Positions 886-31,812 of a stretch of DNA of 64,000 nucleotides are shown in pieces. The notes below the pieces were generated by a model. That model saw only the letters and a list, made by a program, of their open reading frames with translations, was not told the origin of the DNA and did not search any database. Position 1 is the stretch's first letter. Every line of letters begins with the position of its first letter. Source of the stretch: a virus (taxonomy: Duplodnaviria; Heunggongvirae; Uroviricota; Caudoviricetes); IMG/VR virus record IMGVR_UViG_3300045988_150439. One strand, written 5' to 3'. The position numbers and the translations under genes were made by a program.

Positions 886-1244
886 TGTCCATGAAAATGG
901 GTGACCTAGCAAAGCGCAAAGAGCCTGATGCACCGGCTAAGAACACAACTCCTTTGCGCCAACCAGTCAGACCACAGGGACGCCCGACTCGTGGCAAAGA
1001 GAAAATTAAAAGCCGCACAATGTCACTGGAAGACGAATACTTCGAACTGCTGGAGATGATGAAGTTCATCCCTCGCTTCGAGAAGTTCACTCGTTCTGAC
1101 GTGATTCGAGCAGCCATTTTCCATCTGGCAGAGAAGTCACCGCAGGAAATCGAGGACATCGTGAAGCTTAACGAGGCGATCACAGCTGCCGACGTTACGA
1201 TGCGTACCGATGAAATTAAACGAGAGTTGATGAAGAAAGGTTGA
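885..1244 (+). CDS. small partition partner protein (ParG/RHH-like), putative
   Basis: 119 aa ORF whose start overlaps the parA stop (ATGA); basic N-terminus and helical C-terminus consistent with a centromere-binding partner. No motif-level proof. Confidence 0.35.
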   Translation: MSMKMGDLAKRKEPDAPAKNTTPLRQPVRPQGRPTRGKEKIKSRTMSLEDEYFELLEMMKFIPRFEKFTRSDVIRAAIFHLAEKSPQEIEDIVKLNEAITAADVTMRTDEIKRELMKKG

Positions 1245-1286
1245 TTATATTGGGCGTTTGTTACGCCCAATATATGAATTAAAGGA

Positions 1287-2990
1287 TTGATACTAATGGA
1301 ATCGATAGAATCATTTCTAAAAAATTTTCTAGTTTCAGATCATCGGGTTGCCGTCATAAAAGGAGATTGGGGCGTTGGTAAAACTCATTATTGGAATAGT
1401 TTTTATACTAAGCATTCTGAAGGATTAGATTTTAATGCATATTCGTATGTTTCTTTGTTTGGGGTTAACTCTATTGGTGATATTAAAAAAACTCTTTATC
1501 ATTGTGCCACACCAATTAATGAAAAGAAATATAAAGAACTAATTTTATCTGAAACGGATCGAACTATGATTCGTTATAGAAATGGGTTTTGGGGATGGTT
1601 GAAATACAACTCCTTGTCAAAATTTTTAATACATTTCGGAAAGAACGATTTTTTTGGGTTCAAAACAGATAACCTGCTGTCATCTCTTGAGTATAAATTT
1701 GTTAATAATTATTTGGTTTGTATTGATGATGTTGAAAGAAAAGGTAATTCGCTAGAAGTTAAAGAAATTATGGGGGTAATTGATGAATTAGCAAGAAGAA
1801 AAGGTTGCAAAGTTGTTCTAATTTTAAATGAAGATAATTTACATGATGAAACTGCAAAAAAACAGTTTTTAGAGTACAGAGAAAAAGTAATTGATGTCGA
1901 AATAAAATACGATCCTACGCCTGAGAAGAACTTACGTAAAGTTTTTTATGAAACTGATTCTGATTTTCTTTTGTTAAAAGTCTTAGCAAATGACTTAGGC
2001 ATTAAAAATATCCGTATATTAAATAAAATAAAAACATCTCTGGTTAATCTTAGGAATGAGCTAAGCTTGGCAGAGGATAAGGTTAGAGAAAGTTTTATCA
2101 ATAGATTGGTTCTGTTTTCAGTGGTTTACTATTCTGGTGTTCCAGGTGTTGATTATGCCTTGTTTAAAGAATCAATTAAAAACATACATGTATTTGATTA
2201 CATGTTAGATGATAAAAAGGATGATTCTGTATATTCATTTATTAATAGTCTTGATATTATTTATGAACGAGCGGAAATTGCTTTCGATGATGACATAGAT
2301 TTTTATCTCAAGAATGGTTATCTTTCTACTGAAAGCAATATTCGAGGTATAATAGAAGAAAAAAATAAACAATATAAAGAACACAAGGCTTTATGTGAGG
2401 TTAACAATGTTTGGGATATTTTTAGTGACTCATTCAAGGACAATGAATCTGAGTTTATTTCTAAGATAAAATGTGTAATTAACGACAATCTTTCACACAT
2501 ACCTGTTGCTCACTTCATAGGCTTGATTGATATCTTAAATAGATTGTTGATTGATTGTGATAGTTATATAGAGGCATATGCAGATGCCTTTGTTAGCCAA
2601 GATGATGCTTATACTGCTTTTCGGAATTTGTATGTAGAGATATTTGGTAACGAAAAGTTAGGTCTGCTAATTCAAAAAAAATTGATGGATAAGAAGCCTG
2701 AAGAGACTAATTTAGAGAATGTTTTATACAAAATAATTGAAGGCAAATTTAATCATAGTGACATAGCATATCTTAACAGTTTCTCTGAAGATGATTATTT
2801 AAAGTGGATATTATCCCGCAATCAGGATGCTTTGGATTTAGTGAGAAAGGGGTTGCTCAGATTCAAAAGTATGCAAGAACTAACAGAAGAACAGCAAAAA
2901 ATCACGAATAAAGCAATAGGTGCATTAACGAAACTGGCCTCTAGATCAAGTCTTAACAAACTACGTGTGAGCAGATTGCTTAATAATTAA
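1287..2990 (+). CDS. KAP-family P-loop NTPase
   Basis: Walker A GDWGVGKTHYW near the N-terminus, 567 aa, strongly AT-rich relative to neighbours; domain order matches the KAP NTPase family (PifA-like). Confidence 0.55.
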   Translation: MILMESIESFLKNFLVSDHRVAVIKGDWGVGKTHYWNSFYTKHSEGLDFNAYSYVSLFGVNSIGDIKKTLYHCATPINEKKYKELILSETDRTMIRYRNGFWGWLKYNSLSKFLIHFGKNDFFGFKTDNLLSSLEYKFVNNYLVCIDDVERKGNSLEVKEIMGVIDELARRKGCKVVLILNEDNLHDETAKKQFLEYREKVIDVEIKYDPTPEKNLRKVFYETDSDFLLLKVLANDLGIKNIRILNKIKTSLVNLRNELSLAEDKVRESFINRLVLFSVVYYSGVPGVDYALFKESIKNIHVFDYMLDDKKDDSVYSFINSLDIIYERAEIAFDDDIDFYLKNGYLSTESNIRGIIEEKNKQYKEHKALCEVNNVWDIFSDSFKDNESEFISKIKCVINDNLSHIPVAHFIGLIDILNRLLIDCDSYIEAYADAFVSQDDAYTAFRNLYVEIFGNEKLGLLIQKKLMDKKPEETNLENVLYKIIEGKFNHSDIAYLNSFSEDDYLKWILSRNQDALDLVRKGLLRFKSMQELTEEQQKITNKAIGALTKLASRSSLNKLRVSRLLNN

Positions 2991-2998
2991 GTATTCAT

Positions 2999-3053
2999 GA
3001 CCTGTTTCTGTATATAAATAATAAGTAACTTATTAAATATACGGAAGCAGGTC
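2999..3053. repeat. 55-bp nested palindrome / hairpin directly after the KAP NTPase stop
   Basis: Arms gacctgtttctgtatat / atatacggaagcaggtc flank an AT-rich loop that itself contains the perfect palindrome aataagtAacttatt; a second copy lies at 53263-53324. Confidence 0.55.
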
Positions 3054-6631: not shown

Positions 6632-7408
6632 ATGAAAGACGAAATTCAGAAATTAGCCTGCGACATCATTGATAAAACTGGTTTAGAAATCAGCGAGAGC
6701 AATCGGCTAGACATCATTGAAAAAGCCGTAAAAACAGCAATGGATCATATCGCCACTCGTTTGGTCGAGATCCCGCTACCAGGGCTACCTTATCTGAAAG
6801 TTGAGTTACACGTATGGGGTGAACCTTCTTGTTCACGGCGTTCTGCATTAGTTGTTTTTATTAGCAAAGAAAACCCGCTCAGTCTTAAAGTGCAGGTTGG
6901 TGCATGGATGGATGGAAAAGTGATCTACACAAATACCGTTTTTTGTCTTTCAAACGACGAAACTATTGAAGCGGCCATTCAAGAAGCAGTTCTAGCAATG
7001 CGCAGCAGCGGTTTGATGAAGAATAACTACGAAGAGTACTTGCGTTCGATAAGTGGTGAAAAGACATTATCTCTGAAAGCAGATTTCGTTACCCCGAAAA
7101 ATCTGTTGGAAGTCTTGCTTAATAAAGGGGCTAATGATGCCGTAAATGTAATCAGAGAGAGTGAGTATGCGTCTCTTTGCGACATGTGCAAAAGCCAGTT
7201 GGATCTGGTGCATATCGTTATTGATGCTGGGAAGGCATGTGATGGCGTAATGGCGGAATTTGCTTGGAAGGTGGTCAGGATTGCTAACGAATTACCGATG
7301 ATAGAGCAAGAGGCCAAATCATACGCCACCAATCATGTCACAGAGCTTCTTGTCCCCTATCGCTTAGAAAGCAATCAGCGCAAGATGGTTAGCTGGGGAA
7401 GTTGGTAA
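6632..7408 (+). CDS. hypothetical protein
   Basis: 258 aa ORF with RBS-like aggag upstream; no recognised motif. Confidence 0.45.
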   Translation: MKDEIQKLACDIIDKTGLEISESNRLDIIEKAVKTAMDHIATRLVEIPLPGLPYLKVELHVWGEPSCSRRSALVVFISKENPLSLKVQVGAWMDGKVIYTNTVFCLSNDETIEAAIQEAVLAMRSSGLMKNNYEEYLRSISGEKTLSLKADFVTPKNLLEVLLNKGANDAVNVIRESEYASLCDMCKSQLDLVHIVIDAGKACDGVMAEFAWKVVRIANELPMIEQEAKSYATNHVTELLVPYRLESNQRKMVSWGSW

Positions 7409-9441: not shown

Positions 9442-9640
9442 ACGGGAGAAGGAAACGCTTCATGAAATCAGTAAGTGGCCGGAGTTCCCTGAGTACTGGA
9501 AGCCTAAAACGCGAGCTAAGTTAGAGCGTTTAGGGTTGGTTGCAAACGTTTCTGAAACGTGGTGTTCGGCCAACTACCAGTTAACTGATAAAGGGAAAGT
9601 ATTGCTACAGCAATTAGTAGAATCAGGAGCGTTAAAATGA
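9425..9640 (+). CDS. hypothetical small protein
   Basis: 71 aa ORF overlapping neighbours by a few bases (operon-like packing). Confidence 0.3.
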   Translation: MIVLSKREKETLHEISKWPEFPEYWKPKTRAKLERLGLVANVSETWCSANYQLTDKGKVLLQQLVESGALK

Positions 9641-9789
9641 TTCCATACATCTCATTAGCTTTTATGGGTGGCTTCCTTATCGGCTTCGGCATCTGTCGTG
9701 ATTTAATTAAGCAGGAACTTAAAACCAAAACACTGTGCATCGGAAAGCGTGTGTATCGGGTAGTTCATGAAACAAAGGTGAAAAAATGA
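9637..9789 (+). CDS. small membrane protein (50 aa), paralog of 9262-9441
   Basis: MIPYISLAFMGGFLIGFGIC...GKRVYRVVHE; its first 15 nt (atgattccatacatc) recur at 10650 and at the lox-like site at 15356. Confidence 0.3.
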   Translation: MIPYISLAFMGGFLIGFGICRDLIKQELKTKTLCIGKRVYRVVHETKVKK

Positions 9790-10076
9790 GCAATTTAACT
9801 TCTTGGGAATGGTGGTTGGCCACCTATTTCTTAGCGACCGGAGTCGCATTCGCCTTTTACGTAGGTCAGTTAGTCGTAAAACTGTTGCTTATTAAATTTG
9901 CTAGTCATAAACGTATCGATGATGGTCTGTGGCGTCTTGGTACCCTGGTGGAAACTCGCTACGGGCAACTTAAGGAGAACGAAACCATTACTATCCAAGC
10001 GAAACGATTCACTGCCACCATCACAAGAACACCTGATCGTAGAGTGGCCTTGATCAAAAAAGTCACAACCGAATAA
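9786..10076 (+). CDS. small membrane protein
   Basis: 96 aa, N-terminal hydrophobic segment (WWLATYFLATGVAFAFYVGQLVV). Confidence 0.35.
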   Translation: MSNLTSWEWWLATYFLATGVAFAFYVGQLVVKLLLIKFASHKRIDDGLWRLGTLVETRYGQLKENETITIQAKRFTATITRTPDRRVALIKKVTTE

Positions 10077-10466
10077 AAACATGGTGATAAGTATTTACTT
10101 ACTTATCTTTTATGTATAAGATGACTTTGTTTTCGTTGAGACGCGACTGTTTGAACTTAAATACAAGTGCAAACGAAGAAGTCTATCTGGCAGTAGCCTA
10201 ATAAGCCAAACACCAGCGAGGTCAGTTTCCAGCCTCGTTACCGAAATGGGACACACTGAGCGAGTGTGATTGCAGAACGCAGGAGGGAACATTCATGTTC
10301 CCTCCGATGAAGTAACAGAATGGGCGGTTGGTATATTTTCAACTCCATATGACTCCCGGATTCTTAGCCACTGACCGCCCATCCTGTTACGTCATTTTGT
10401 TCAATTATGTCGTTTATACTGGGTTAAAAAGCGGCGACGTAGCCCGGCTGGTATGGTTAGCCAGCA

Positions 10467-10588
10467 CACAACGTTGAGGCCATTACATTTTTATCAATTC
10501 TAAGGTTCTATTCACAGAGATACCGGCGAGCGTTGATATGTAACATGTTGGGCAAACATTCAATCGGAGTAGTGGCCTCAACGTTGTG
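10467..10588 (+). repeat. long-range hairpin element (16-bp perfect inverted repeat enclosing about 90 nt)
   Basis: cacaacgttgaggcca at 10467-10482 is the exact reverse complement of 10573-10588. Confidence 0.5.
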
Positions 10589-10854
10589 AAGACGGGATTG
10601 TTGTGTAGGTTTAACCACTGTTGCCATTGGTGCCTGTTTTCACAACAAATGATTCCATACATCACATTGTATAAATTACAAAGTAGGTGCTGTCCTCAGA
10701 AACATCATCTACTTAAAGATTTTGCCTTCTACTATTGAGCGAAGTCGAAAGCGTCTGGCACTAACGAAAAGTGCAAGTAGCGGTGCGTTTCCTGGCAGAA
10801 ACTAAACCGTCGCGATTGGCACTGTTGAGTAATAAATACTGGCAGTGCTGAATT

Positions 10855-10929
10855 GATGGTGTAGCTCAGCGGTAGAGCAGTTGGCTGTTAACCAACTGGT
10901 CGGTGGTTCGAATCCACCCACCATCGCCA
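10855..10929 (+). tRNA. tRNA-Asn (anticodon GTT)
   Basis: Hand-folded cloverleaf: acceptor gatggtg/caccatc, D-arm gctcagcggtagagc, anticodon loop ctGTTaa, T-arm ggtggttcgaatccacc, encoded CCA. Confidence 0.8.
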
Positions 10930-10932
10930 ATG

Positions 10933-11007
10933 CCGGTTTAGCTCAGTTGGTAGAGCACCTGCCTTGTAAGCAGGATGTCAGCGGTTCGATCCCGTTAACC
11001 GGCACCA
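10933..11007 (+). tRNA. tRNA-Thr (anticodon TGT)
   Basis: Acceptor gccggtt/aaccggc, D-arm gctcagttggtagagc, anticodon stem cctgc/gcagg with loop ctTGTaa, T-loop ttcgatc, encoded CCA. Confidence 0.75.
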
Positions 11008-11026
11008 ACACAACAGGTAAGAGCAT

Positions 11027-11100
11027 TGGGCGAATCGGCGATACTGACCCACAAGCCCGTAAATCGATAGAGTCAGACCAGTGCTCTTACCGTTGTGAGG
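11027..11100 (+). repeat. long-range hairpin element ending in cttaccgttgtga
   Basis: gtaagagcattgg pairs with ccagtgctcttac (one G-U) enclosing about 48 nt; not foldable as a tRNA. Confidence 0.4.
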
Positions 11101-11156
11101 AAGTGCAGCTCTTTGAAGCAACCAGAAGATAAGCATCTGGCTTCACAACACAACGA

Positions 11157-11219
11157 TAAGATCATTACGGTTAATCGTCGTTCATGTGCACAATGACTGG
11201 TCGAAAGGTAGTGATCTTA
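11157..11219 (+). repeat. long-range hairpin element ending in cttaccgttgtga
   Basis: taagatcattac pairs with gtagtgatctta (one G-U); same 3' tail as the element at 11027-11100. Confidence 0.4.
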
Positions 11220-11327
11220 CCGTTGTGATGAATGCACAGGCTGATGTGCCGCAACTACAGTAGTGCGCGCTTTGCGGGGCTTGCTACAACCCTGTGTCGG
11301 AGTTCAGCACCGACCATCACAATAGCT

Positions 11328-11414
11328 GGAGAGTAGGGAGCATGGTGCTCAAGCGGTCTTGAAAACCGTCCCATTGCGCAAGCGATGATGGTTCGATTCC
11401 ATTACTCTCCGCCA
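11328..11414 (+). tRNA. tRNA-Ser (anticodon TGA), long variable arm
   Basis: 87 nt; acceptor ggagagt/actctcc, anticodon loop ctTGAaa, long extra arm, T-loop ttcgatt, encoded CCA. Confidence 0.7.
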
Positions 11415-11417
11415 GAC

Positions 11418-11493
11418 ACAGCGTTGAGCGGTTTGGCCTTTTAATCACCCAGATTAAGACTCCGCTAACATAAACCAGACCGCTCAACGCTGT
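11418..11493 (+). repeat. long-range hairpin element immediately 3' of tRNA-Ser
   Basis: acagcgttgagcggt (11418-11432) is the exact reverse complement of 11479-11493. Confidence 0.45.
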
Positions 11494-11567
11494 GATAGAC
11501 AATTACGGCAGACGTTCTTAACCATAGCTTGCTAACATCCTAGCAACACTTTTTTTCAGCGCAAAAT

Positions 11568-11592
11568 TCAAAGGGGCTTCGGCCCCTTTTCT
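11568..11592. terminator. bidirectional Rho-independent terminator
   Basis: GC hairpin aaaggggcttcggcccctttt with A-run before and T-run after; lies between the tRNA block and the 3' end of the minus-strand gene 11593-12804. Confidence 0.6.
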
Positions 11593-12804
11593 TCAAAAAA
11601 GTTTTATAAATTCATAATTCTGGTCAATTAAGGATTCAATACACACCATGCAAAAATCTACATCGTTAAAATCAGGTGTGTAATATTCATCCTCATAACA
11701 TTCATTTAGACCTTCAATCAATTTTTCTTTAAAAACTCCCCACGTTTCAATATGAACCATTTCCATATAAGGCGCATGTGTATGTACTTGCAATACATCC
11801 CAGGTGTCTATAACCTCGATCCGCGGCTTGCAATTAATTTTTTCTAAATATGCCCTCCCAGAATTGTAAATTTTCGACATTGATGCCCCAAAACCTGATG
11901 GTTGGTAATGAGTGTAAATGTCATAAATTTTTTGTCCTATTCTAGGGAGTTGAGAAGCATTGGATATTTGTGGCGAATGAAAGTATCGCTCTATGGAAGA
12001 AAACGCAGAAACATTAACTAGAGTAATCGTATATGGTGCTAAAGTTCTCTCGTTCAAATTTCTACATAAAATAGCAAACCCATGGCTATTAGTCTTTTCA
12101 CCGTCTGAGGACATTTTTGCCATGCTGGCTTTAATAACATTCAATTTCGAATGTAAACGAGAAGTGGAAGTCGGTTGATTATACATTTCATCATCATACA
12201 AACATATATGAAACCCGCCAAGATGACGAAATGAGAACTTGAGTGCTTCTTCCGCAATAACTAATTTATTAATATCTAAAGGAGTAAGTGATACGTTACC
12301 TTGTAAATCATAGCAAGGTTCTAAACATAGAAAGTTTTTCTTCTGCCACACAATCATATTAAAAATAAAGTGTCTAACCAAAGGTGGCCAGTCAGGTGAT
12401 ATAAGTACATTGGTAATATCTCCATCAGACAAGTATGACAAGTAACTTTTTAGTTCCGCAGCATATGCCACTAGCTCAGTTCCAGCTTCCCTTGTTGGTG
12501 TTGAAAAATTTTTTAACTCAATAAGAACTAAGGATTCATTCTCTGTTGAATAAGCAACGACATCAGGTCTTAATATCTCAGATTTTGTTGCTGAGATATT
12601 TTCATCATCTGTCATTAAATGTAACAATGTTATATTCTTTAAACAAAACTGATAACTCTCCTTAATTTTTTTCTCTTCGGGTCTTTTCGGATTAAATTCA
12701 TTTAATTTATCAATATTGATGATTGAATTATATAATCCATCTTGATCAGATAATTTGTCAATTATCCAATTTTGCATTTCCTTTTCGCTTAAAAATATTG
12801 ACAC
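11593..12804 (-). CDS. PD-(D/E)xK nuclease-like protein, putative (second gene of an AT-rich two-gene module)
   Basis: 403 aa; N-terminal region carries a PD-x14-ExK arrangement (RPDVVAYSTENESLVLIELK); GTG start with GGAG RBS; strongly AT-rich; 26 bp downstream of its partner. Confidence 0.4.
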   Translation of the reverse strand: MSIFLSEKEMQNWIIDKLSDQDGLYNSIINIDKLNEFNPKRPEEKKIKESYQFCLKNITLLHLMTDDENISATKSEILRPDVVAYSTENESLVLIELKNFSTPTREAGTELVAYAAELKSYLSYLSDGDITNVLISPDWPPLVRHFIFNMIVWQKKNFLCLEPCYDLQGNVSLTPLDINKLVIAEEALKFSFRHLGGFHICLYDDEMYNQPTSTSRLHSKLNVIKASMAKMSSDGEKTNSHGFAILCRNLNERTLAPYTITLVNVSAFSSIERYFHSPQISNASQLPRIGQKIYDIYTHYQPSGFGASMSKIYNSGRAYLEKINCKPRIEVIDTWDVLQVHTHAPYMEMVHIETWGVFKEKLIEGLNECYEDEYYTPDFNDVDFCMVCIESLIDQNYEFIKLF

Positions 12805-12830
12805 TAATTAGGCTCCCGTTAAACCAAAAA

Positions 12831-13652
12831 TTAAAAATCTTGCTTTACTTTATCCATAGTCAGAATTTTGCTAATAATTGAAGATTCAAATCCATCTAAA
12901 CCTGAGAGAAAGTTAATTAGCTTTTGGATATGTTGTTCTTTAGGTATAAGTATATATTTTATATCATTGAACTCAAAATCAATGCCAAACTTTGAAAATT
13001 TTGAGCTAATTTTTGCTTTGTCATCAGAAGTGATAACACGCTCCAAACTCAGACTAGGCCATAAATCACCAATAAAAGGAGCTGGCACATAACGCCACTC
13101 TTTCTCGTCTGCATATATATAATTCTCTATTGTTTTATTATCTTTTCGCTCTAGCTTGCCTCTGTAATTTTTCATATAACGCAGTAAATTATATAGATCA
13201 GAATATTCTGCTTTCAATTTCTCAAACTCTATTCTGTTTTTGGTATCTAAATTTCCTCTAGCCTTCCAAAGCGGCACCAACTTTTTTTTAATAAGTCGAA
13301 TTCTGGCATTGTATTTAGAAAATATTTCACTGCTCTTATTCATATATAGAACTGGGTGTAGACCTTTCTTTTCCGCCCAAGACTTAGTTAGCCCAAGACC
13401 GAATTCCCCATATTTTCCGCTATGATCTCTGATTTGTGATAGTTTTATGTCACAAAACGATACCATTGGTACTGCAAACCTCCTGCGTCCCCCGACTCCT
13501 CTTATTTCCTCGCGAGCAAGAAATGGTTTAAAATATTTCTCAGCCAATATGCTATAGAAAGCATCTTCGTTTTTTGTAAAATGAAACAACGTGGTTGGAT
13601 GAAGACTATAAACAGATTCAACATTCGCATCAGGATTTTCAAGGATAGTCAT
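12831..13652 (-). CDS. Abi-like hypothetical protein (first gene of the AT-rich two-gene module)
   Basis: 273 aa from the ATG at 13652 (RBS aaggtg); AT-rich, Lys-rich; gene sizes and order resemble two-gene abortive-infection modules such as AbiGi/AbiGii, but this is an unverified recollection. Confidence 0.35.
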   Translation of the reverse strand: MTILENPDANVESVYSLHPTTLFHFTKNEDAFYSILAEKYFKPFLAREEIRGVGGRRRFAVPMVSFCDIKLSQIRDHSGKYGEFGLGLTKSWAEKKGLHPVLYMNKSSEIFSKYNARIRLIKKKLVPLWKARGNLDTKNRIEFEKLKAEYSDLYNLLRYMKNYRGKLERKDNKTIENYIYADEKEWRYVPAPFIGDLWPSLSLERVITSDDKAKISSKFSKFGIDFEFNDIKYILIPKEQHIQKLINFLSGLDGFESSIISKILTMDKVKQDF

Positions 13653-13801
13653 TTTACACCTTGTGGAAAGCCAGTTTAGTTCTGTAAATAGTATCACACG
13701 ACAGGCGGCTATTCTTCTATCAATAAAGGATAGGTAAGCACTTACTTTTTACGCGCGTTAATTGTATAGTTCTTTCGGATACTCACTTGAAAGGACTCAA
13801 T

Positions 13802-13945
13802 ATGGGAAATAAATGTAAACATGCGCGTCGCGCATCTCGTCAGGTGCAGAAGTCAAATCCATACATTCACGAGCACTACCACCTCAGCTCTTTCACTAAC
13901 CGCTACACGTTCCCCAGCGAAGCGCATAACGAGGCAAGGCAATGA
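13802..13945 (+). CDS. small basic protein (47 aa), putative
   Basis: ATG with aagga RBS; stop overlaps the start of the glutaredoxin gene (ATGA), suggesting translational coupling. Confidence 0.25.
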   Translation: MGNKCKHARRASRQVQKSNPYIHEHYHLSSFTNRYTFPSEAHNEARQ

Positions 13946-14187
13946 CGATCACTATCTACGGACGAGATAACTGCTCATACTGCAAACGTGCGGTCGAGCT
14001 GGCGAAGCAACTAAAGGGACATGGCTACGGTGATTATGAGTACATCGACATCACCACTGCCGGTATCGACAAGAAAAAACTAAGTGAAATTGTTGGTAAA
14101 CCGGTAGAGACTATCCCCCAGGTACTGATCGATGGCCAACCGATTGGCGGATACACAGAATTTGCTGCTTTTGCGAGCACTCTGTAA
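13942..14187 (+). CDS. glutaredoxin (NrdH/NrdC-like redoxin)
   Basis: 81 aa with CSYC active-site motif in the thioredoxin-fold position (YGRDNCSYCKRA). Confidence 0.65.
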   Translation: MTITIYGRDNCSYCKRAVELAKQLKGHGYGDYEYIDITTAGIDKKKLSEIVGKPVETIPQVLIDGQPIGGYTEFAAFASTL

Positions 14188-14282
14188 TACAATACGGCTC
14201 CTTTTGGGGCCATTTATTATTTGTAGCTTTCATCAGCACAGCGTACACTTAGTTACGAGCCATTGAGTAGTTAAGAGGTTTT

Positions 14283-14891
14283 ATGCGTTTAGAAAATTGC
14301 CTAGAAGATATGAGTGTCATTAGCAATGCCCTTGCTACTGTGACCTCTAACGCTTCACGCTTTTCAAACGCAAAGCCTACAGCTAAATCTGGGCGTGATT
14401 TTATTGAACCGCGTGGATATCGACGCTTCCGTGGCACGATGAAGCCCTCTGCGAAATTCACAGGATTCAAAACACAAACCTATGTGAGCACTGCGGCTAT
14501 TCCTGTTCAAGAGAACCGCGATGCGGCACAGCTGGCAAAGATTGAAAGCAAGCTCGCAAAATTGACGGCGAAACACGTTCGCTTAGCCCATGCCATCTCT
14601 GGATGGAAAGCGGAAAAGATTCGCAGCAACTTCGGTGAAAGTCGTTACGAAGAACTGAAGAACGTTGACCTGACCATTCGTGGTTTGGAGGGATTCGTTA
14701 ACAAGTTGATTCGCGACTCTGAGCAACCTCATCCATATTTGAAACGCTTGAGCGATTCTGTAACTGAGTATCGTTTAGCTATCTCTGATCTGCTATTGAT
14801 TTTAAATCAGTGTTTTAACGACGTAAACGTCATCGAATCGCAGACTGGCCTCATTGATGAGGACGTCTTCGCCAACTTCTCATTCCATTGA
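14283..14891 (+). CDS. hypothetical protein (possible antitoxin-position partner of the YafO-like gene)
   Basis: 202 aa ORF with aagagg RBS, ending 10 bp before the YafO-like gene; no recognised fold. Confidence 0.4.
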   Translation: MRLENCLEDMSVISNALATVTSNASRFSNAKPTAKSGRDFIEPRGYRRFRGTMKPSAKFTGFKTQTYVSTAAIPVQENRDAAQLAKIESKLAKLTAKHVRLAHAISGWKAEKIRSNFGESRYEELKNVDLTIRGLEGFVNKLIRDSEQPHPYLKRLSDSVTEYRLAISDLLLILNQCFNDVNVIESQTGLIDEDVFANFSFH

Positions 14892-14900
14892 GGTTGAACG

Positions 14901-15311
14901 ATGAAGATCACATGGAACAGTGATAGTTACGCCCAATTTTTAAAGCCGACCTTCGATATAAAGCCTGACTTAGAGATTACGTTACTCAACGATTTCAAGT
15001 CGTTTAAACAAGGCATGTACCCAGCCCTATTCGGCAAAGATGGCCCGTATACGGCTCCTGGTGCTATCGTGTCCTCCCGCGTTTATCACGTTCATCTCTT
15101 GTTCACGAAGCAAGAACGAACCAGCAGCCGCAGCAGATTCAATTGCACAAGCGACCGTGCACTCGTTTACAGTCAACATGCACATTTCCAAGATGTGTAT
15201 AGCCTATTGGCAATCTTCCCTAACAACGCACATCAGTACGCGAAAGATCCAAAAATTATGGTCGATATCGCTGCCTACGCGGCCGCATTTCAAGCTCTCA
15301 CTAACCCTTAA
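14901..15311 (+). CDS. YafO-family toxin-like protein
   Basis: 136 aa; segments FGKDGPY...VYHVHLLF, RALVYSQHAHF and LLAIFPNNAHQYAKD...AAYAAAF parallel E. coli YafO as recalled from memory (not searched). Confidence 0.45.
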   Translation: MKITWNSDSYAQFLKPTFDIKPDLEITLLNDFKSFKQGMYPALFGKDGPYTAPGAIVSSRVYHVHLLFTKQERTSSRSRFNCTSDRALVYSQHAHFQDVYSLLAIFPNNAHQYAKDPKIMVDIAAYAAAFQALTNP

Positions 15312-15353
15312 CAATCATATTAATAACGCCTCAGAATTTAAATTCCTCCCTTA

Positions 15354-15386
15354 AATGATTCCATACCTACTATGTATGGAATCATT
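15354..15386. repeat. lox/FRT-like recombination site candidate (13-bp perfect inverted repeats, 7-bp spacer)
   Basis: aatgattccatac-ctactat-gtatggaatcatt, about 100 bp upstream of the tyrosine recombinase gene. Confidence 0.5.
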
Positions 15387-15484
15387 ACTAAAAATGAGTT
15401 ACTTTGACTCTTGATCCTATAAGAATCTATGCCTAATATACTGTTTACTTATACAGTGTATCGGCGTAACTCGGTGATTGTCAT

Positions 15485-16588
15485 ATGAAAAATAGCTTTG
15501 ACAGAGCACGCGCAGCGGAGAACACCTCAAAAGAGGCGATTGAGTATCTCGAAAGAGCATCTCAAATGCAGGCCGTTATGATCTCGCAGGTTAGCAATGA
15601 CATGAGATTCTCAGACGCATTCATGTTATTCACTCGCTTATCTCTGCTAATAACAAGACGTCGGCCAGAGATCGCTGTTCACTGTATTTTGATACATGTT
15701 TTGCCGCACATTGCTGATGTAAAAGTAAGTGACATTAATAGGTTCATGGTGAACCAACTGGTCAACCCACTAATACTGGATGGCAAAATTGTTATGGGCC
15801 GCCGCGTTTTCTCTCTGATGAAGCAGTTCCTTAGCTGGTGCGCCTTCCAGGGGATGATAGACGTGTCACCGTTAAACGATATGTCACTTAACAAAGTTGC
15901 CGGTGGCGCAAAGCCCACACCTCGCGAGCGGAAGCTGACCGACGCAGAGGTATGGGTGTTCTGGAATATATGGGACTACTTCAATGTGTGTGCTGGTACA
16001 AAATGGGCGGCAAGGCTATGTCTTGTATCCGCAAGACGACCTGATGAAGTACTGCGGGCTAAAAAAAGTGAGTTCAATCTTAAGCGTGGGGTTTGGAATC
16101 AAGGCAAAAGAAACAAGTCAGCACGTGAGCATTCGCTGCCTTTAAGCACATTAATGCGCACATGCATTGAAGAGTTGTTCGAATACGGTAAAGATAGCCA
16201 GTGGCTCGTTCCTTCGAATAAAAAAATCGGGAAAGACCTTCCTATGTCTAAAGTGGCAATAGCCCAGGCATTACGTCGTATTCTGGAACGACCAGAACTG
16301 ATGGAGCTTGAGCCATTTACACCCCGAGATTTGCGCCGTACTGCGCGTAGTTACTTCCCAGCATTAGGCATAAGCCAGGAGGTATCACGTAAAATCATGA
16401 ACCACAGTCTTGAGGGGATAGATCGGGTCTACGACCGGCACGATTATATGGACGAGATGCGAGACGCCTTAGAAAGTTTCTCGACGTACATCGCATCAAT
16501 CGTAGAGCAACCGGATTTAGACGAAATTGACCACAAATTTAAGGGAGATCGTCTATCAACAGAGCTTATTCGTGTAAATTTTTCATAG
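15485..16588 (+). CDS. int: tyrosine recombinase / phage-type integrase
   Basis: C-terminal catalytic region with ARLCLVSARRPDEV (Arg box), TPRDLRRTARSY and NHSLEGIDRVYDRHDY (His/Tyr box); true start may be internal to the listed ORF. Confidence 0.65.
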   Translation: MKNSFDRARAAENTSKEAIEYLERASQMQAVMISQVSNDMRFSDAFMLFTRLSLLITRRRPEIAVHCILIHVLPHIADVKVSDINRFMVNQLVNPLILDGKIVMGRRVFSLMKQFLSWCAFQGMIDVSPLNDMSLNKVAGGAKPTPRERKLTDAEVWVFWNIWDYFNVCAGTKWAARLCLVSARRPDEVLRAKKSEFNLKRGVWNQGKRNKSAREHSLPLSTLMRTCIEELFEYGKDSQWLVPSNKKIGKDLPMSKVAIAQALRRILERPELMELEPFTPRDLRRTARSYFPALGISQEVSRKIMNHSLEGIDRVYDRHDYMDEMRDALESFSTYIASIVEQPDLDEIDHKFKGDRLSTELIRVNFS

Positions 16589-16969
16589 AGACTTTATGGC
16601 CTCAACAACCTTTTGTGATGCGCCTTTCTCTTTACCGAATCGCTCGTTATATGCAGCAAGAACCTGTTTTTCGTCCTCGTTAAGAGGAGCAGTGCCTTCT
16701 TTGTATAAAAATGCTGCGAGTTCGGGTTGACGTTCTTCCAGCACCATCATCATAAGACGACTTGGCTCAATACCCAGTGCCAGCGCCAGCGGACGAACCT
16801 TATCGATAGGCAAAGGAATTTTGCCGCTTTTAATTAAAGAAAGGTTGTTGGCGTTTTTATACCCAATTGTTTTGGCTATCTGGGCCTGGCTCATAGGTGA
16901 GGATTCAATCAACCCTGCGATAAAAGCAGCGTAGCGACTTTCTATAAATTCAATCTTGTTATCAGACAT
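16583..16969 (-). CDS. XRE-family helix-turn-helix transcriptional regulator (repressor-like)
   Basis: HTH segment MSQAQIAKTIGYKNANNLSLIKSGK; same orientation as the recombinase gene's opposite strand, with a 250-bp AT-rich control region upstream of it. Confidence 0.6.
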   Translation of the reverse strand: MSDNKIEFIESRYAAFIAGLIESSPMSQAQIAKTIGYKNANNLSLIKSGKIPLPIDKVRPLALALGIEPSRLMMMVLEERQPELAAFLYKEGTAPLNEDEKQVLAAYNERFGKEKGASQKVVEAIKSL

Positions 16970-17433: not shown

Positions 17434-17531
17434 CCCCTCTTCTCCCTGCGCGAATGGCTTAGTTCCCTGTTCGCGCAGTGCTACATTAAACAAACTAGTA
17501 AATAATTTGTTTTCATAACAAAGGATTAGCC

Positions 17532-21151: not shown

Positions 21152-24100
21152 ATGAAGGCACTGATGGTTCGAACTGACTTCTCACTTGGGGAGTCGGCTC
21201 TAAAAGCAGAAAACGCGGTGAAGATTGCCAGAGAAGCTGGCTACACCGCTGTAATTTCAGCAGATAGCATGAATATTGCAAGTGTTATTCCACTACAACG
21301 TGCCGCTGGTGACGACATGGCGGTTATTTGTGGTGTGAAACTAAACATTGTTGATGATCCCACATACGAGCACCGGGCTAAACTTGCTAAAGAATCTATG
21401 AGATGTATGGAATCATTAGAGCGGGGACGCAACTACTCGTTTACCGCTCTAATTAAAAATGAGCAAGGATATCGCGACATCTGCGAACTAATGACGGCGG
21501 CCAACACACGAGAACAGTTCTACTTTGTACCGCGTCTCTCGCTCGAACAGTTGGTTTCTACATATGCCAAAGGCAACATCATCCTGCTTACTTCCGACAT
21601 CGGTAGCGTGTTCCAACGCAACGATTTTGCAAAAATCATAAGCACACTGATTACAGCGGGTGGAAAAGACAACTTCTATAGTGTGGTTTATCCGCACCCT
21701 ACCCCATTCTACGACCAGATTAACGTCCGGGCGATGAAAGTCGCCAGCGCACTGAAAATAGAGCCAGTAGCGTTTTATCCCGCTTATTACGAATCGATCG
21801 ACGATGCAGACATTAAAGACATTGCGCACATGGTTACGAACAACATCAAAATCGACCAGCCGCATCGTCTGCGTATCCCCCACCAGCGAGATAACGCCAT
21901 CAATGGTCGTCGCCATCTCCTTGAGGCGCTTAAAGCCTTCTCCGTTCGCATGGATGTGCCGGTAACAGCTGCAATGGCCTCAACAACGCAGGACTCCATT
22001 ATCGATGCCTGCACATGGCGCTGGCATGAATTGCCACCAGCACTGCCCAAGATGGCAGACGACGAACCTGCAACGCTGATGAAACTGGCTGTTGAAGGGC
22101 TGCGTAAACGTCTTACCACAAAAGAGTTTGGATACACACCACCTGCTTCTGAGAACAGGGTTTATGTTGAGCGGCTAAAGTACGAAATGGACACGCTGAC
22201 TCGCCTGGGATTCTGTGGTTACTTCCTGATGGTACGCGATCTGATGAATCATAGTCGTGAAACTGGCATTCCCGTTGGGCCTGGTCGTGGTTCCTCTGCC
22301 GGTTCTCTGGTGGCGTGGTGCATAGGCATAACCAACGTCGACCCAATCCGTCACGGTCTTCTGTTTGAGCGTTTCATCAACCCTGAGCGTCTCGACTTGC
22401 CGGATGCGGACTTGGACTTCAGCCAGGCACGTCGCCATGAGGTGATCGAGTATCTGAATGAACGCTACGGCGAAGATTACGTTGCAGGCATTCCGAACTT
22501 CACCTATCTGGGCGCGGCATCTGCGCTGCGTGACACTGCACGTATTTACGGTGTCGATGCTGCGGATATGGCGGTATCCAAAGAGTTCAAGAATATGGAG
22601 GACGACAGCCTGTCTCTGGAAGAGCTGCGCGAGCAACTGGCCAGCCTGGACAAATACGCCACGAAAAACCCGGAAGCGTTCAAAGCGGCGTGTAAGCTGC
22701 AAAGCCTGATGCGTGGTTTTGGTCGTCACGCTGCGGGGATGATCGTCGCTGGCGTTCCATTAGTAGAGCGCACGCCCGTCGAGCTGCGTGGCAATGCTCG
22801 ATGTATTGCGTTCGATAAACGTTACTGCGAGGCGATGGGGCTGATTAAGTTGGACGTTCTCGGTCTGGCAACACTCGATCTTCTGGATAGCGCGAAACGC
22901 TACATCAAAGAGAGCACCGGTGAAGACATCAATCTCGACGCTATCCCACTGGACGATCGCAAGGTTCTGGATGGGTTCGCTGCAGGGTACACGCAGGGCG
23001 TATTCCAGCTGGAGTCCGGCCCCATGCGTAAGCTGCTTAAAGATCTGGGCGGTGGCATCGAGCCAATGAGTTTCAAAACCGTTGTCGCAACTACCGCCCT
23101 CTTCCGACCGGGACCGATTCAATCCGGCATGTTGGATGACTATGTTTCCGTTGCGAAAGGATTTATGACGCCTACATCACTACATCCTGTCTTGGATGAA
23201 CTGACCTCTGAAACAAATGGAGTGATTCTCTATCAGGAACAAACGATGAACGCAACAAGGCTTCTTGCTGGTTTCACAATGGCTGAGGCGGATGGTGTGC
23301 GTTCAGCAATCGGTAAGAAGAACATGGAAAAGATGAGGAGCATGGGTGAGAAATTTGTCATTCAGGCTCAAGCTGGGTGGATCGACGTAGAGCTTGAAAA
23401 TGGCGCAATACAACGGATTCATCGCGCAGAACATTTTAAATGCGAGGACGGTACTCTGAGGACAGTTGAAGAGGCGTTGGAGCATGGAGTGAAGCTGCCA
23501 ATGCCAGTTGTGCGCGTTACAACGTCACATCCGGGTCTGTCTGAGACGAAGGCAAAAGAGATATGGACTGCATTTGAGAAAAACGGAGCCTATCAGTTCA
23601 ATAAATCACACTCCGTTGCTTATTCTTTAATCAGTTATCAGTCTATGTGGCTAAAGACGCACTACCCTGCTGAGTTCTTCGCAGCTGCGCTCACCATTCT
23701 GGGCGAGGATAAGCATCAGGGGCTGGTGAAGGATGCGCTGACCTATGGCATTCGCGTATTGCCACCAGACGTTAATGTGTCATCTAACCGAATTGAGATC
23801 CGCACACTCGAAGACGGCAGTCAGGCACTGTATGCGCCATTCTCTGCTGTGAAAGGCTGTTCTGAAAATGGTTGTCAGGCAATTATGCGTGCGCGTGAGA
23901 AAGTTGGTGGCAAATTCGAGTCAGTGGCACAATTCGATGAAGCGGTCGAGAAGCGTGCATGTAACAGTCGTGTACGCGAGTCGCTTCATAAAGTAGGGGC
24001 TTTTGCGTCAATTGAGCCAGGCAGTCTGCCAGCAACTGATCCTGAACGACTGCGCGACCAGGCTGAGCTGATGGGCAATCTCATCATTGACGCTGTTAAA

Positions 24101-29472: not shown

Positions 29473-31812
29473 ATGGCAAAAGGAAAATCCGCACTGGCAC
29501 TTGCTCTGAAAAAGAAAATCGGTAGCAACGACGAAATTCAGAAAGTAACTCATTGGATTGACACAGGCTTTCCTCCGTTAAACAAAGCTATTTCCGGTCG
29601 TTACGATGGCGGTTTCCCATGTGGTCGTATCGTAGAAGTATTCGGGCCACCAAGCGCGGGGAAATGTGTTACCGCAGACACCATGCTGCTGACGGAGCGT
29701 GGAATGGTAACAGTGAAAGAGTTGTTTGAGATTGAAGGGTACAAAGCGACATGCACTACTCGCGATGTAGAGCATAACGTTGGACTCATCAATGAAAATG
29801 GCGTGATAGAGAAGACCTCACACCTGACATGGAACAACCGTCGCAAATTCAAGCGTATTAAGCTGGCATCAGGCGGTTATATCGAGGCTACGTTCCGTCA
29901 CCCAATCCGTGTGGTTGACGACTTAGGTAATGTCGTCTGGCGACATGCTGAAAAAATCAGTGTAGGCGACACGATTCCTTCAATGGTTGGCACACATCAA
30001 TTCGGCGATCAGCACCTGGATGCCAATATCGCAAAACTGATGGGCTATTTAATTGCTGACGGATACGTGGCCTCTGAAAATTCAGTGAATTTTTCTAACA
30101 CAGATCCTTTCATCAAGGATGAGTACTACCGCCTCATTTCGCTGGTATCAGACAAGATGCCAGTTACGAGAAAACATAACGGCTCGGAAGACCATGTGCT
30201 GTTTAGCAAAGAGGTGCGTTCGCTGCTTTTTAAAGAATATGGTCTGGAGTATGAGAAAGCTGCTGGCAAGCAGGTTCCGTTGAGTGTGCGTCGCGCCAAT
30301 AGCGAGGCTCAAATTGCATTCCTTCGCGGCTACTTTGAGCTGGAATGCCACGTCAATGATGGTCGCTGCATTGAGGTTGTGAGCGCGAGTGGGCTGCTGC
30401 TACAGCAAATTCGCCTCATGCTCCTGAATCTGGGGATTACGTCAACTATCTCTGAAAAACACGTCGCGGGTTATGAAAATACATATTACCGGCTGTCATT
30501 CAGTGGCTCTAATTACGACCTTTTTCTGTCAACGATTGGTTTCGAATCTCCGGCACGTTTATCAGTGGCAACCAAACGGGACATTGGTTTTGACCGCACT
30601 TACTCAGGCTATGTTCCGCACATCAGCGGCTTAGTGAAATCACTCTACGAGTCGCTCACCAAGACCACCCGTGAAGACTACGCTCTGGTAGACCACGTTA
30701 TTGGCCGCGGCGATCGTGTCGGAATAGACAAACTGCGAGAAATCTATGTCTCCTTCATTGGCAGAAAGAATCGTTTTAACGAGCATCTGTTTGCACAACT
30801 GGCAGCGGTAATTGGCTCTAACTTGTTCTACGACGAAGTCGTGGCTATTGAGGAAGGTGAAGCACCAACGTTCGACGTAGCGATGCCGGAAACACACTCT
30901 TTCTGGTCTAACGGGATTATCAGCCACAACACATTCCTTGCAACAGCAGCGATGATCTCCGCACAGAAACAAGATGGTCTGGCGGTATTCCTCGATCATG
31001 AGAACAGTTTTGACGTTGGCCTGGCTGTAGCCAATGGCCTGAACGCAGATGAGGATGACGGTCAGTGGGTATACAAGCAGCCAGATACCTTCGAAGACTC
31101 TGTAGAGTTGATCGGCACAATACTTAAATTGGTTCGTGATGAAGAGCTTATCCCCGAATCAGCACCTATCTGTATCGTGGCTGACTCTCTTGCGTCTATG
31201 GTTCCGAACTCCAAAGCCGAGAAGTTCGAAAAGATGGCTGAAGGCACTGCCAAAGACAAAGATCAGCTAAACATGAACGACAATACGGCACTGGCTCGTG
31301 CGACGAGTGCGAACTTCCCTACTCTGGCTTTGTGGGCACGCAAATACAACGCCTGCATCATCTTCTTGAATCAGGTTCGCACAAAAATCGGTGTAATGTT
31401 TGGCGACCCTACTACGTCGCCAGGTGGAGATTCACCGAAGTTCTACGCTTCTGTACGTATCCGTCTTGGTGCATCGGTGATGAAGGATGGTAAAGAGAAG
31501 ATCGGCCAGGACGTAGGCGCAGAATGCATCAAAAACAAAGTTGCACCACCGTATGGCAAATGCACCTGGAAATTCTACTTCGATCCTACTCGTGGCCTCG
31601 ACGTTATCGAATCGCTCGTCGAGTACATGCTGGAAGAAGGATACCTGCCAAAGAACGCCAGCGGGCGAGTTGAAATTGGTGACAAGAAATACACCAAATC
31701 GCAGATCGTCGAGATGTATCGGGAGAAGCCATTAGCAGAAATCATTGCTGCGTTACAGACGATAGATGACCGACGAGAGAAGACATCACCAACAGAAGAA
31801 CTAGAAGATTAA
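29473..31812 (+). CDS. recA: RecA-family recombinase interrupted by an intein
   Basis: N-extein ends GRIVEVFGPPSAGK; C-extein begins TFLATAAMISAQKQ and carries ICIVADSLASM, IIFLNQVRTKIGVMFGDPTTSPGG and KFYASVRIRL, all RecA signatures. Confidence 0.8.
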   Translation: MAKGKSALALALKKKIGSNDEIQKVTHWIDTGFPPLNKAISGRYDGGFPCGRIVEVFGPPSAGKCVTADTMLLTERGMVTVKELFEIEGYKATCTTRDVEHNVGLINENGVIEKTSHLTWNNRRKFKRIKLASGGYIEATFRHPIRVVDDLGNVVWRHAEKISVGDTIPSMVGTHQFGDQHLDANIAKLMGYLIADGYVASENSVNFSNTDPFIKDEYYRLISLVSDKMPVTRKHNGSEDHVLFSKEVRSLLFKEYGLEYEKAAGKQVPLSVRRANSEAQIAFLRGYFELECHVNDGRCIEVVSASGLLLQQIRLMLLNLGITSTISEKHVAGYENTYYRLSFSGSNYDLFLSTIGFESPARLSVATKRDIGFDRTYSGYVPHISGLVKSLYESLTKTTREDYALVDHVIGRGDRVGIDKLREIYVSFIGRKNRFNEHLFAQLAAVIGSNLFYDEVVAIEEGEAPTFDVAMPETHSFWSNGIISHNTFLATAAMISAQKQDGLAVFLDHENSFDVGLAVANGLNADEDDGQWVYKQPDTFEDSVELIGTILKLVRDEELIPESAPICIVADSLASMVPNSKAEKFEKMAEGTAKDKDQLNMNDNTALARATSANFPTLALWARKYNACIIFLNQVRTKIGVMFGDPTTSPGGDSPKFYASVRIRLGASVMKDGKEKIGQDVGAECIKNKVAPPYGKCTWKFYFDPTRGLDVIESLVEYMLEEGYLPKNASGRVEIGDKKYTKSQIVEMYREKPLAEIIAALQTIDDRREKTSPTEELED
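29665..30930 (+). mobile_element. intein with LAGLIDADG homing-endonuclease domain, inserted in the RecA P-loop
   Basis: Begins with Cys (CVTADTMLL), ends SHN followed by Thr; two LAGLIDADG-type motifs (LMGYLIADGYV and FLRGYFELECHV); removing the 422 codons restores GPPSAGKT. Confidence 0.75.

Follow-up and report, generated by a model that had tools for sequence, protein, structure and literature searches.

In the Cre/loxP system of phage-plasmid P1, as in Dre/rox and VCre/VloxP, a tyrosine recombinase gene stands beside a 13-bp inverted repeat with an 8-bp spacer. Arm motifs are arranged otherwise elsewhere: the sfx sites of the Rci shufflon consist of one conserved arm, a 7-bp spacer and a non-conserved second arm, while the IRS site of TnpI is accompanied by extra direct copies of the core-arm motif, which act as accessory sites within about 100 bp of the core. 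This article concerns a 64,000-nucleotide stretch of viral DNA (IMG/VR record IMGVR_UViG_3300045988_150439, called the window throughout), in which a tyrosine recombinase gene is preceded by a perfect 13-7-13 palindrome and further copies of the palindrome's arm are found kilobases away. By megablast the window is an SSU5/pHCM2/pMT1-type phage-plasmid of Escherichia coli; its top match is plasmid p88COLEC-2 (99.5%), and its relatives include the phages Cyrano and CMS-2020a, Klebsiella pJN2-26 and Salmonella SSU5. The palindrome very probably serves the neighbouring recombinase as its core site. This Cre/lox-style pair is undescribed in the searchable literature: our literature search found no description of the site, and searches with the site sequence returned unrelated primers only. 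The parts of the pair are as follows.

15354 to 15386, no strand: perfect 13-7-13 palindrome AATGATTCCATAC-CTACTAT-GTATGGAATCATT, putative core site at which the adjacent recombinase would act
15411 to 15458, plus strand: promoter-like TTGATC-17-TAATAT followed by LexA box TACTGTTTACTTATACAGTG, read from the sequence
15485 to 16588, plus strand: tyrosine recombinase of 367 amino acids, with P4-type catalytic and central domains and without the arm-binding domain

Reading of the sequence and a pattern search located exact copies of the 13-mer AATGATTCCATAC at 9636-9648 (+), 10648-10660 (+), 15354-15366 (+) and 15374-15386 (-). The last two together make up the perfect palindrome aatgattccatac-CTACTAT-gtatggaatcatt, which ends 98 bp before the ATG of the recombinase gene (15485). 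An earlier, sequence-only reading of the same DNA had placed a perfect inverted repeat about 100 bp upstream of this gene and same-orientation core copies near 9636 and 10648, the first of them at the start of a small gene; all of this is confirmed, the 9636 copy overlapping the ATG of a 50-codon open reading frame (ORF) at 9637-9789. A fifth exact copy, overlooked in that reading, lies at 21405-21417 (-), within the ORF of a 1172-amino-acid DnaE. With about 0.002 exact copies of a 13-mer expected by chance per 64 kb on both strands (our own arithmetic), the three extra copies are far beyond chance, as the reading had held before the dnaE copy was added to its count. A shuffle control, which covers only matches with at most two mismatches, gave 7 observed matches against a mean of 2.1, a number that one shuffle in 100 attained. 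No copy, even with three mismatches allowed, occurs in the further 47 kb of the nearest complete plasmid (111 kb), and all copies therefore lie at most 6 kb to either side of the recombinase gene. A role as promoter or terminator was rejected, since the palindrome has no T-tract and no convincing sigma-70 promoter is present at the lone copies.

How closely does the palindrome follow the gene? The loci compared came from public records (L001-L016), from an IMG/VR scan using the recombinase protein (L017-L080), from a scan of species-representative genomes with alignment (L081-L128) and from exact-protein look-ups (L129-L134). In all 47 genome loci from other species, a 13-7-13 inverted repeat symmetric at 11-13 of its 13 positions is found 90-290 bp upstream of the recombinase gene, and the exact-arm palindrome is present in 78 phage-plasmid loci. 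The sole exceptions seen are one locus in which the recombinase gene is truncated (L074) and one that carries a 27% homologue (L080). The gene-adjacent architecture of two arms and a short spacer by which Cre/lox-type sites are known is kept in about 125 loci, and the palindrome is intact in every locus that has one.

The arms come in two versions. TGATTCCATAC is found in all phage-plasmid lineages, whose recombinases are 56-100% identical and which belong to Escherichia, Salmonella, Klebsiella, Yersinia, Enterobacter, Kluyvera, Buttiauxella, Nissabacter and Serratia. The version TGACTCCAGAC is that of a sister clade with recombinases 45-52% identical, from Pantoea, Erwinia, Rahnella, Ewingella, Xenorhabdus, Photorhabdus, Hafnia, Morganella and Chimaeribacter; its loci are on large plasmids wherever the replicon type could be judged, and it is called the megaplasmid clade here. 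The differences between TGATTCCATAC and TGACTCCAGAC are mirrored in both arms. At a Pantoea locus, the one sister-clade annotation read, the palindrome is present without the helix-turn-helix (HTH) gene that neighbours the recombinase gene in the window, and the site therefore goes with the recombinase. Because the site accompanies the gene in this way and its arms change symmetrically between clades, the assignment of the palindrome as the lox-like site of the adjacent tyrosine recombinase, already made by the sequence-only reading, is supported.

The spacer between the arms is always 7 bp long and free in sequence (CTACTAT, CTATTAA, CTTACAA, CTAAGGA, CTATAGA and TATATAA are among the examples), with 8 versions among the phage-plasmid loci and more in the megaplasmid clade. 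Between close relatives it can be flipped relative to the gene with the arms unchanged, as in CTACTAT versus ATAGTAG (PhiR41_1, L048) and CTATTAA versus TTAATAG (L070, L083). Such variation and flipping would be expected of a crossover region lying between two protein-bound arms: the orientation of the spacer should matter only relative to a second copy of the site, and it is not conserved relative to the rest of the plasmid. As an observation apart, the tRNA-Ser of the element itself contains, in its T-loop/T-stem at 11390-11403 (TCGATTCCATTAC), a match to the arm core GATTCCAT, and the sister-clade arm GACTCC matches another common T-loop variant, a likeness that may hint at an origin of the site from a tRNA attachment site.

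Domain, catalytic residues and fold all identify the protein as a tyrosine recombinase. PF00589 is matched above the cut-off (E 4.7e-10) and the phage-integrase central domain PF22022 weakly; R185, R284/R285, Y316 and Y321 are invariant among 26 homologues, and H307 nearly so. The top fold match of the AlphaFold2 model (predicted local distance difference test score 85) is residues 75-356 of lambda Int, followed by Tn1549 Int, Xer and IntI; Cre is a weaker match in Foldseek (E about 1e-2, against 1e-6 for lambda Int). A PDB sequence search at E of at most 1 returned no match for the recombinase, which places it outside the Cre sequence family. The arm-binding domain PF13356 (DUF4102), characteristic of directional P4-type integrases, has no Pfam match in it; distant homologues at 26-34% identity, which are classical P4-type integrases, carry this domain, whereas the listed family members, at least 43% identical, do not. 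The family is compact, with about 110 clusters at 43% identity or more, enterobacterial wherever the source organism is named, and identity drops sharply beneath 43%, to the 26-34% shared with P4-type integrases. From sequence and model, the protein looks like a two-domain recombinase acting on a simple symmetric site; with the arm-binding domain lost, it is therefore probably a simple enzyme of the Cre/lox or Xer/dif kind.

The element occurs in 252 of 5426 complete E. coli genomes, at 255 places that are all plasmid and never chromosomal, and no chromosomal integration with attL/attR was found among them. This location points to recombination between plasmid copies, most likely multimer resolution, a role that also appears to fit the presence of the pair on non-phage megaplasmids. 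Upstream of the gene, between palindrome and ATG, a predicted LexA box CTGT-N8-ACAG of the kind that marks the LexA (SOS) regulon lies at 15441-15456, immediately after the TAATAT -10. A box is found 54-56 bp past the palindrome in 74 of 79 phage-plasmid loci, against none of 44 megaplasmid-clade loci, and the recombinase of the phage-plasmids would thus seem to be under LexA control. Induction of the related phage Cyrano by genotoxic stress has been reported (PMC9928086).

We hold with moderate confidence an explanation that joins these parts. The enzyme would belong to a compact enterobacterial subfamily of P4-type recombinases that has lost its arm-binding domain, and the 33-bp palindrome would be its core site. 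Two recombinase monomers would bind the 13-bp arms, and strands would be exchanged across the 7-bp spacer in a Cre/lox-like or Xer/dif-like manner. In the main reaction, plasmid or phage multimers would be resolved by recombination of one copy of the site with another; a reaction at this level is the most likely one because the element is always extrachromosomal, and multimer resolution would be the most economical role, with circularisation of the genome after infection as a possible further one. Less likely reactions are integration into the chromosome and the capture of cassettes. The LexA box before the gene would, in the phage-plasmid clade, have the enzyme made mainly in the SOS response or on induction. 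The lone 15-mers would be bound by single recombinase molecules for a job other than recombination, as XDS sites are by XerD. The palindrome-recombinase module, finally, would form the fixed right border of a cargo slot because it is itself under constraint, the contents of the slot being turned over by other routes.

The lone copies, which this explanation treats as half-sites, are these.

9636 to 9651, plus strand: orphan half-site a (AATGATTCCATACATC), covering the start codon and first five codons of a 50-amino-acid ORF
10648 to 10663, plus strand: orphan half-site b, an unpaired stretch in a conserved structured non-coding region, about 200 bp upstream of tRNA-Asn
21402 to 21417, minus strand: orphan half-site c, inside dnaE, on the strand antisense to the codons for CMESL
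16088 to 16102, minus strand: degenerate remnant TTGATTCCAAACCCC of a half-site d, inside the recombinase gene

The intact form of d, TTGATTCCATACATC (-), is found 692-732 bp to the right of the palindrome in the pHCM2, pMT1, Klebsiella and Serratia lineages. The three lone copies a, b and c have a 15-16-mer, (A)ATGATTCCATACATC, in common and agree with the palindrome over a shorter stretch; in the palindrome the spacer opens with CTA when read from one arm and with ATA when read from the other. In alignments of 24-30 distinct sequences per site, with flanks 25-30% diverged, the 15-mer is the longest invariant block. The invariance extends over the coding sites a and c despite varying third-codon positions nearby (at a, amid variable flanks and synonymous sites in 30 distinct sequences) and over the barely alignable non-coding site b. 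The DnaE segment around c is a variable linker, the CMESL peptide being missing and the segment wholly different in the divergent L012 and L078, so that the protein does not impose the sequence of c. A 9-bp in-frame tandem duplication, ACATCTCAT, stands right beside the dnaE half-site in one relative (L046, about 6950-6964). By eye, no degenerate second arm is present beside the lone copies, which are therefore true half-sites; and since they are conserved at orthologous positions, including inside dnaE, they do not behave as scars of recombination would. These patterns suggest selection on the copies as nucleic acid.

Their layout is regular. The loci are collinear, and across 78 of them all 121 copies to the left of the palindrome are on the plus strand and all 84 to its right on the minus strand, although this strict polarity, suggestive as it is, comes from only 4-5 independent sites. 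The layout persists in Nissabacter and Serratia elements, whose recombinases are about 60% identical. Searching the megaplasmid clade with its own arm version turned up no lone copies beyond chance one-mismatch matches. Recombinase binding at the half-sites is our best guess, favoured by their 11-13 nucleotides of identity to the arms and by the XerD/XDS precedent. It is possible, if rather doubtful, that the lone 15-mers are working polar half-sites in the ligase operon, the tRNA leader, dnaE and the recombinase gene, read by the SOS-induced recombinase or by an RNA of the same sequence. Were this so, they would link the site of recombination with lytic replication control or with the organisation of the DNA, as a plasmid-scale counterpart of XerD/XDS with strict convergent polarity.

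Several points weigh against the explanation that we favour. The binding, cleavage and multimer resolution proposed in it are drawn by analogy, catalysis and the half-site role are likewise predictions, and the screen for a second resolution system covered only part of the ORFs. SOS control would be unusual for a housekeeping resolvase. The core 11-mer is invariant within the phage-plasmid clade, even at about 60% recombinase identity, so no co-variation ties the orphans to the enzyme; an apparent case, the GTG found in both arms and lone copies of L012 (Klebsiella), is contradicted by L078, with TTG arms and a GTG lone copy. The orphans keep the ATC after the arm and not the outermost arm base, and the resulting shift in register of 2-3 bp relative to the palindrome arms is not predicted by a plain monomer-binding model. 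Finally SSU5, which has no recombinase, HTH gene or palindrome, keeps a and c intact and b with one change. As a natural recombinase-less control SSU5 was set aside, its deletion looking too recent to reveal decay of lone copies because SSU5 is 94-96% identical to pHCM2. At the deletion itself (L008 13912-14077), the palindrome, recombinase, HTH regulator and small ORF are gone and tRNA-Asn lies almost directly before CobT; no direct repeats were seen at its ends, and the loss may be related to the lytic-looking behaviour of this phage.

To the left of the palindrome lies the slot, with the following limits.

10931 to 15331, no strand: hypervariable cargo slot, holding here tRNA-Thr, tRNA-Ser, a 403-amino-acid protein with AbiGi, glutaredoxin, and a 202-amino-acid protein with YafO
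15332 to 15337, plus strand: conserved -10-like hexamer CAGAAT (TTAACA-18-CAGAAT; TAAAAT or CAGATT in relatives), some 20 bp left of the palindrome, at which the conserved module truly ends on its outer side

The slot is real and abuts the module. At the palindrome, the right flanks form a single conserved family, against 32 distinct left flanks of 30 nucleotides; 7 of 10 relatives compared (L002, L004, L005, L006, L007, L009 and L011) regain homology to the window at 15352-15355, nearly all listed E. coli plasmids show the same right edge (query match starting at 153-155), and pMT1 and pHCM2 become homologous again at the same palindrome edge. Many unrelated left flanks share the -10-like CAGAAT, TAAAAT or CAGATT about 20-27 bp from the palindrome, which means that the conserved module ends about 30 bp outside the arm and not in the spacer. 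Between b and the palindrome lie 1192-5724 bp, a distance that takes 39 distinct values among 56 loci; between the palindrome and c lie 6000-6337 bp. The a-to-b spacing stays at 986-1025 bp in all 56 loci having both copies. The sequence-only reading of the DNA left of the palindrome as swappable cargo is thus supported, though not for segment 9637-10650, one of the two segments it had proposed to check for variable presence, which is intact as a unit in 56 of 56 loci. In the other, 10650-15354, the E. coli relatives differ only from tRNA-Asn (about 10931) or a later point onward and not from 10648; the one fit to that left edge is the caf island of pMT1.

This island, caf1R-caf1M-caf1A-caf1, takes the place of everything between a retained CACAAYAT, after which copy b would start, and the palindrome edge; its junctions sit at the outer edge of the motif, where a cut by the recombinase would not be expected. 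In Yersinia pestis pMT1 (L014 6127-11870) the F1 capsule operon thus fills the slot, replacing the block of tRNA, PhoH, gp49 and glutaredoxin of pHCM2; PhoH is among the other occupants of the slot. PhiR41_1 (L009 2586-9001) has there a chaperone-usher fimbrial operon, a second fimbrial-type cargo, with an AraC-type regulator and insertion sequence fragments, next to a flipped spacer. Serratia and Nissabacter-type relatives (L132 7043-8784; L133 6575-7153) carry Tad2-like, Acb2/Tad1-hairpin and ADP-ribosyl-toxin-like genes in the slot, and E. coli relatives have ISEcp1 with a beta-lactamase gene, CMY-2 (L011) or CTX-M (L002), immediately upstream. The arrangement glutaredoxin-YafO-palindrome-recombinase is collinear through the site in lineages 22-28% diverged. 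A lineage crossover exactly at the palindrome was considered and dropped: the mosaics L021 and L053 switch lineage near it, not cleanly at it.

Was the slot filled by the recombinase itself? The sequence-only reading suggested so, taking the lone cores for cassette junctions of an integron-like arrangement in which circular cassettes would have been inserted at the palindrome. That the cargo abuts the palindrome with at least 32 left flanks, homology resuming at 15352-15355 in most relatives, agrees with such capture, as do the caf island, reaching from the position of b to the palindrome edge, and the lone copies themselves, which keep the outer arm and point inward, the geometry left if the inner arms of duplicated sites had decayed. 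We nevertheless regard capture as unlikely. The internal module breakpoints (11013/11313, 11596, 13931-42 and 14168), like that at 10931, have no core or other shared repeat, whereas each integron cassette is bounded by attC; the a-b segment never varies, and the left border in E. coli follows tRNA-Asn instead of b. The breakpoints at the palindrome lie at or outside the outer arm edge, or some 30 bp further left past CAGAAT, whereas a junction made by the recombinase would be in the spacer, and the YafO arrangement runs through the site unbroken. Copies conserved at orthologous positions inside dnaE and the recombinase gene cannot be insertion scars, and on megaplasmids the gene-palindrome unit is single-copy and without lone copies. 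None of the 194 PLSDB plasmids of this type contains the predicted deletion junction (10648 with the palindrome), nor does any contain the inversion junction (9636 with 21417, a with c) that a shufflon-type process would leave. It is highly improbable that the enzyme is instead a true integrase with the palindrome as attP for a chromosomal site, perhaps a tRNA gene. Its nearest sequence relatives are indeed P4-type integrases, the arm core matches the T-arm of the element's tRNA-Ser, and tRNA genes border the slot; yet none of the 255 E. coli places is chromosomal, the arm-binding domain typical of directional integrases is missing, and the palindrome is intact wherever found, with a spacer that differs between close relatives and would shift the target.

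The lone copies admit two further accounts. Pairing between RNAs, with sense a and b meeting the complementary c and d inside the dnaE and recombinase mRNAs as an antisense regulatory link, has a small but appreciable chance of being right. It would explain the extra ATC, the lone copies sharing 15-20 nucleotides mutually and just 12-13 with the palindrome, and it suits site b, which is unpaired and flanked by conserved helices whose base changes are compensatory or are U-G wobbles that only the plus strand allows; 5 of 6 variant types are wobble-compatible for their strand, a count from our own reading that is not significant. It leaves the identity of the shared sequence with the DNA arms of the recombinase unexplained, pairing past 15 nucleotides shows no co-variation of a/b with c across lineages, and control by a small RNA would be unusual at +250 in dnaE and +620 in the recombinase gene, where the targets lie; no promoter or terminator is shown for such an RNA, and copy a has no evident partner role. 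We think it very unlikely that the motif is an operator of the neighbouring HTH repressor, present singly in the lone copies and doubled in the palindrome. The C1 repressor of P1 has both single and double operators, and asymmetric ones are scattered over that phage-plasmid. The HTH gene, the lone copies and the LexA box do all occur in the phage-plasmid clade and at none of the megaplasmid-clade loci examined, but a symmetric-arm palindrome stands beside the recombinase gene at a megaplasmid locus without the HTH gene, and the region upstream of the HTH gene has other palindromes, of the GGTAAG-N2-CTTACC type, and no copy of AATGATTCCATAC. The sites are not at recognisable promoters; only 3-4 exist, confined to 12 kb, and the half of the plasmid with the structural genes has none.

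In order, the neighbourhood of the module comprises the genes for helicase, primase and ligase, some small ORFs, 780 bp of non-coding DNA, tRNA-Asn, tRNA-Thr and tRNA-Ser, the cargo, the palindrome, the recombinase gene, the convergent HTH gene, a small ORF, and the genes for CobT-like and AAA proteins and DnaE. One regulator belongs to this neighbourhood.

16583 to 16969, minus strand: HTH (XRE-like) regulator, convergent with the recombinase gene and seen only in the phage-plasmid clade

Between a 96-amino-acid gene and tRNA-Asn, the structured non-coding region at 10440-10860 (+) contains a 19-bp long-range helix (CACAACGTTGAGGCC... / ...GGCCTCAACGTTGTG), with compensatory GC-to-AU and CG-to-UG-to-UA changes, its U-G wobbles being those valid on the plus strand only, and further small helices; in Rfam only tRNAs pass the threshold, and tmRNA-like matches at 10071-10252 fall beneath it. 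An inverted repeat CTGCGCGAA-N15-TTCGCGCAG at 17446-17478 stands immediately 5' of the CobT-like gene, and its counterpart in pHCM2 and SSU5 is CCTGTACGAACAG-N8-CTGTTCGTACAGG (L015 13975-14010), the position being kept and the sequence not. A Rep3-type plasmid initiator gene at 35040-36095 (-) is separated from the palindrome by only about 20 kb, which does not put the site opposite the plasmid origin; given this distance and a GC (guanine-cytosine) skew that does not switch at the palindrome, the idea of a fork trap or terminus has no support and was dropped. At 29473-31812 (+), a RecA-like protein is split by an intein with a LAGLIDADG homing-endonuclease domain. Two low-GC patches, 11593-13697 and 1001-3000 (31-34% against about 45-47% elsewhere), overlap the AbiGi module and a KAP-family NTPase gene respectively, which is consistent with recent acquisition of defence cargo.

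The pair is likely a maintenance system in a plasmid family present in about 4.6% of complete E. coli genomes and including Y. pestis pMT1 and Salmonella Typhi pHCM2. Its site marks the fixed border of a slot with genes for the plague F1 capsule, fimbriae, toxin-antitoxin, abortive infection and anti-defence (Tad2, Acb2). A compact enzyme, a 33-bp site with symmetric arms and a natural second specificity (the TGACTCCAGAC arms) together make a candidate orthogonal lox-like tool, and the polar orphan half-sites, one of them in a tolerant dnaE linker, raise the question of what role the target sequence might have away from the recombination site.

Set beside known systems, the locus most resembles Cre/loxP: both have a phage-plasmid host, 13-bp inverted arms, a short asymmetric spacer, no arm-binding domain and an expected function in multimer resolution or circularisation. 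Here, however, the spacer is 7 bp and not 8, the protein is not Cre-like in sequence, and there is a LexA box; we know of no counterpart in P1 of the conserved orphan half-sites. The closest sequence relatives are integrases of the P4/CP4-57 type (PRK09692-type, PF22022 and PF00589), and tRNA genes are nearby in both; unlike the integrases of tRNA-linked islands, the recombinase lacks PF13356, its site is a perfect palindrome instead of a tRNA 3' end, and the element is never chromosomal in our data. As in integrons, with their IntI, attI and attC, a recombinase gene and its site stand at one end of variable accessory genes, but attC-like sites or cores are absent from the module boundaries, the modules are multi-gene, on both strands and with their own signals, and the recombinase is nearer the lambda and P4 integrases than IntI. 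The lone copies share with sfx a single conserved arm and with TnpI the presence of extra arm-motif copies; inversion products as in Rci/sfx are not seen here, where an inversion between a and c would break dnaE, and the lone copies lie 0.7-6 kb from the core, far from the roughly 100 bp of the TnpI accessory repeats. XerD binds orphan dif-like XDS sites in Bacillus subtilis for a role other than recombination (Karaboja 2021, as cited in PMC11840125). As far as that secondary account goes, part-site copies are there, too, scattered around a recombination site and used outside recombination; the likeness is one of analogy, the copies here occupying a 12-kb stretch of plasmid where XDS sites occupy a chromosomal terminus, and here following a strict convergent polarity.

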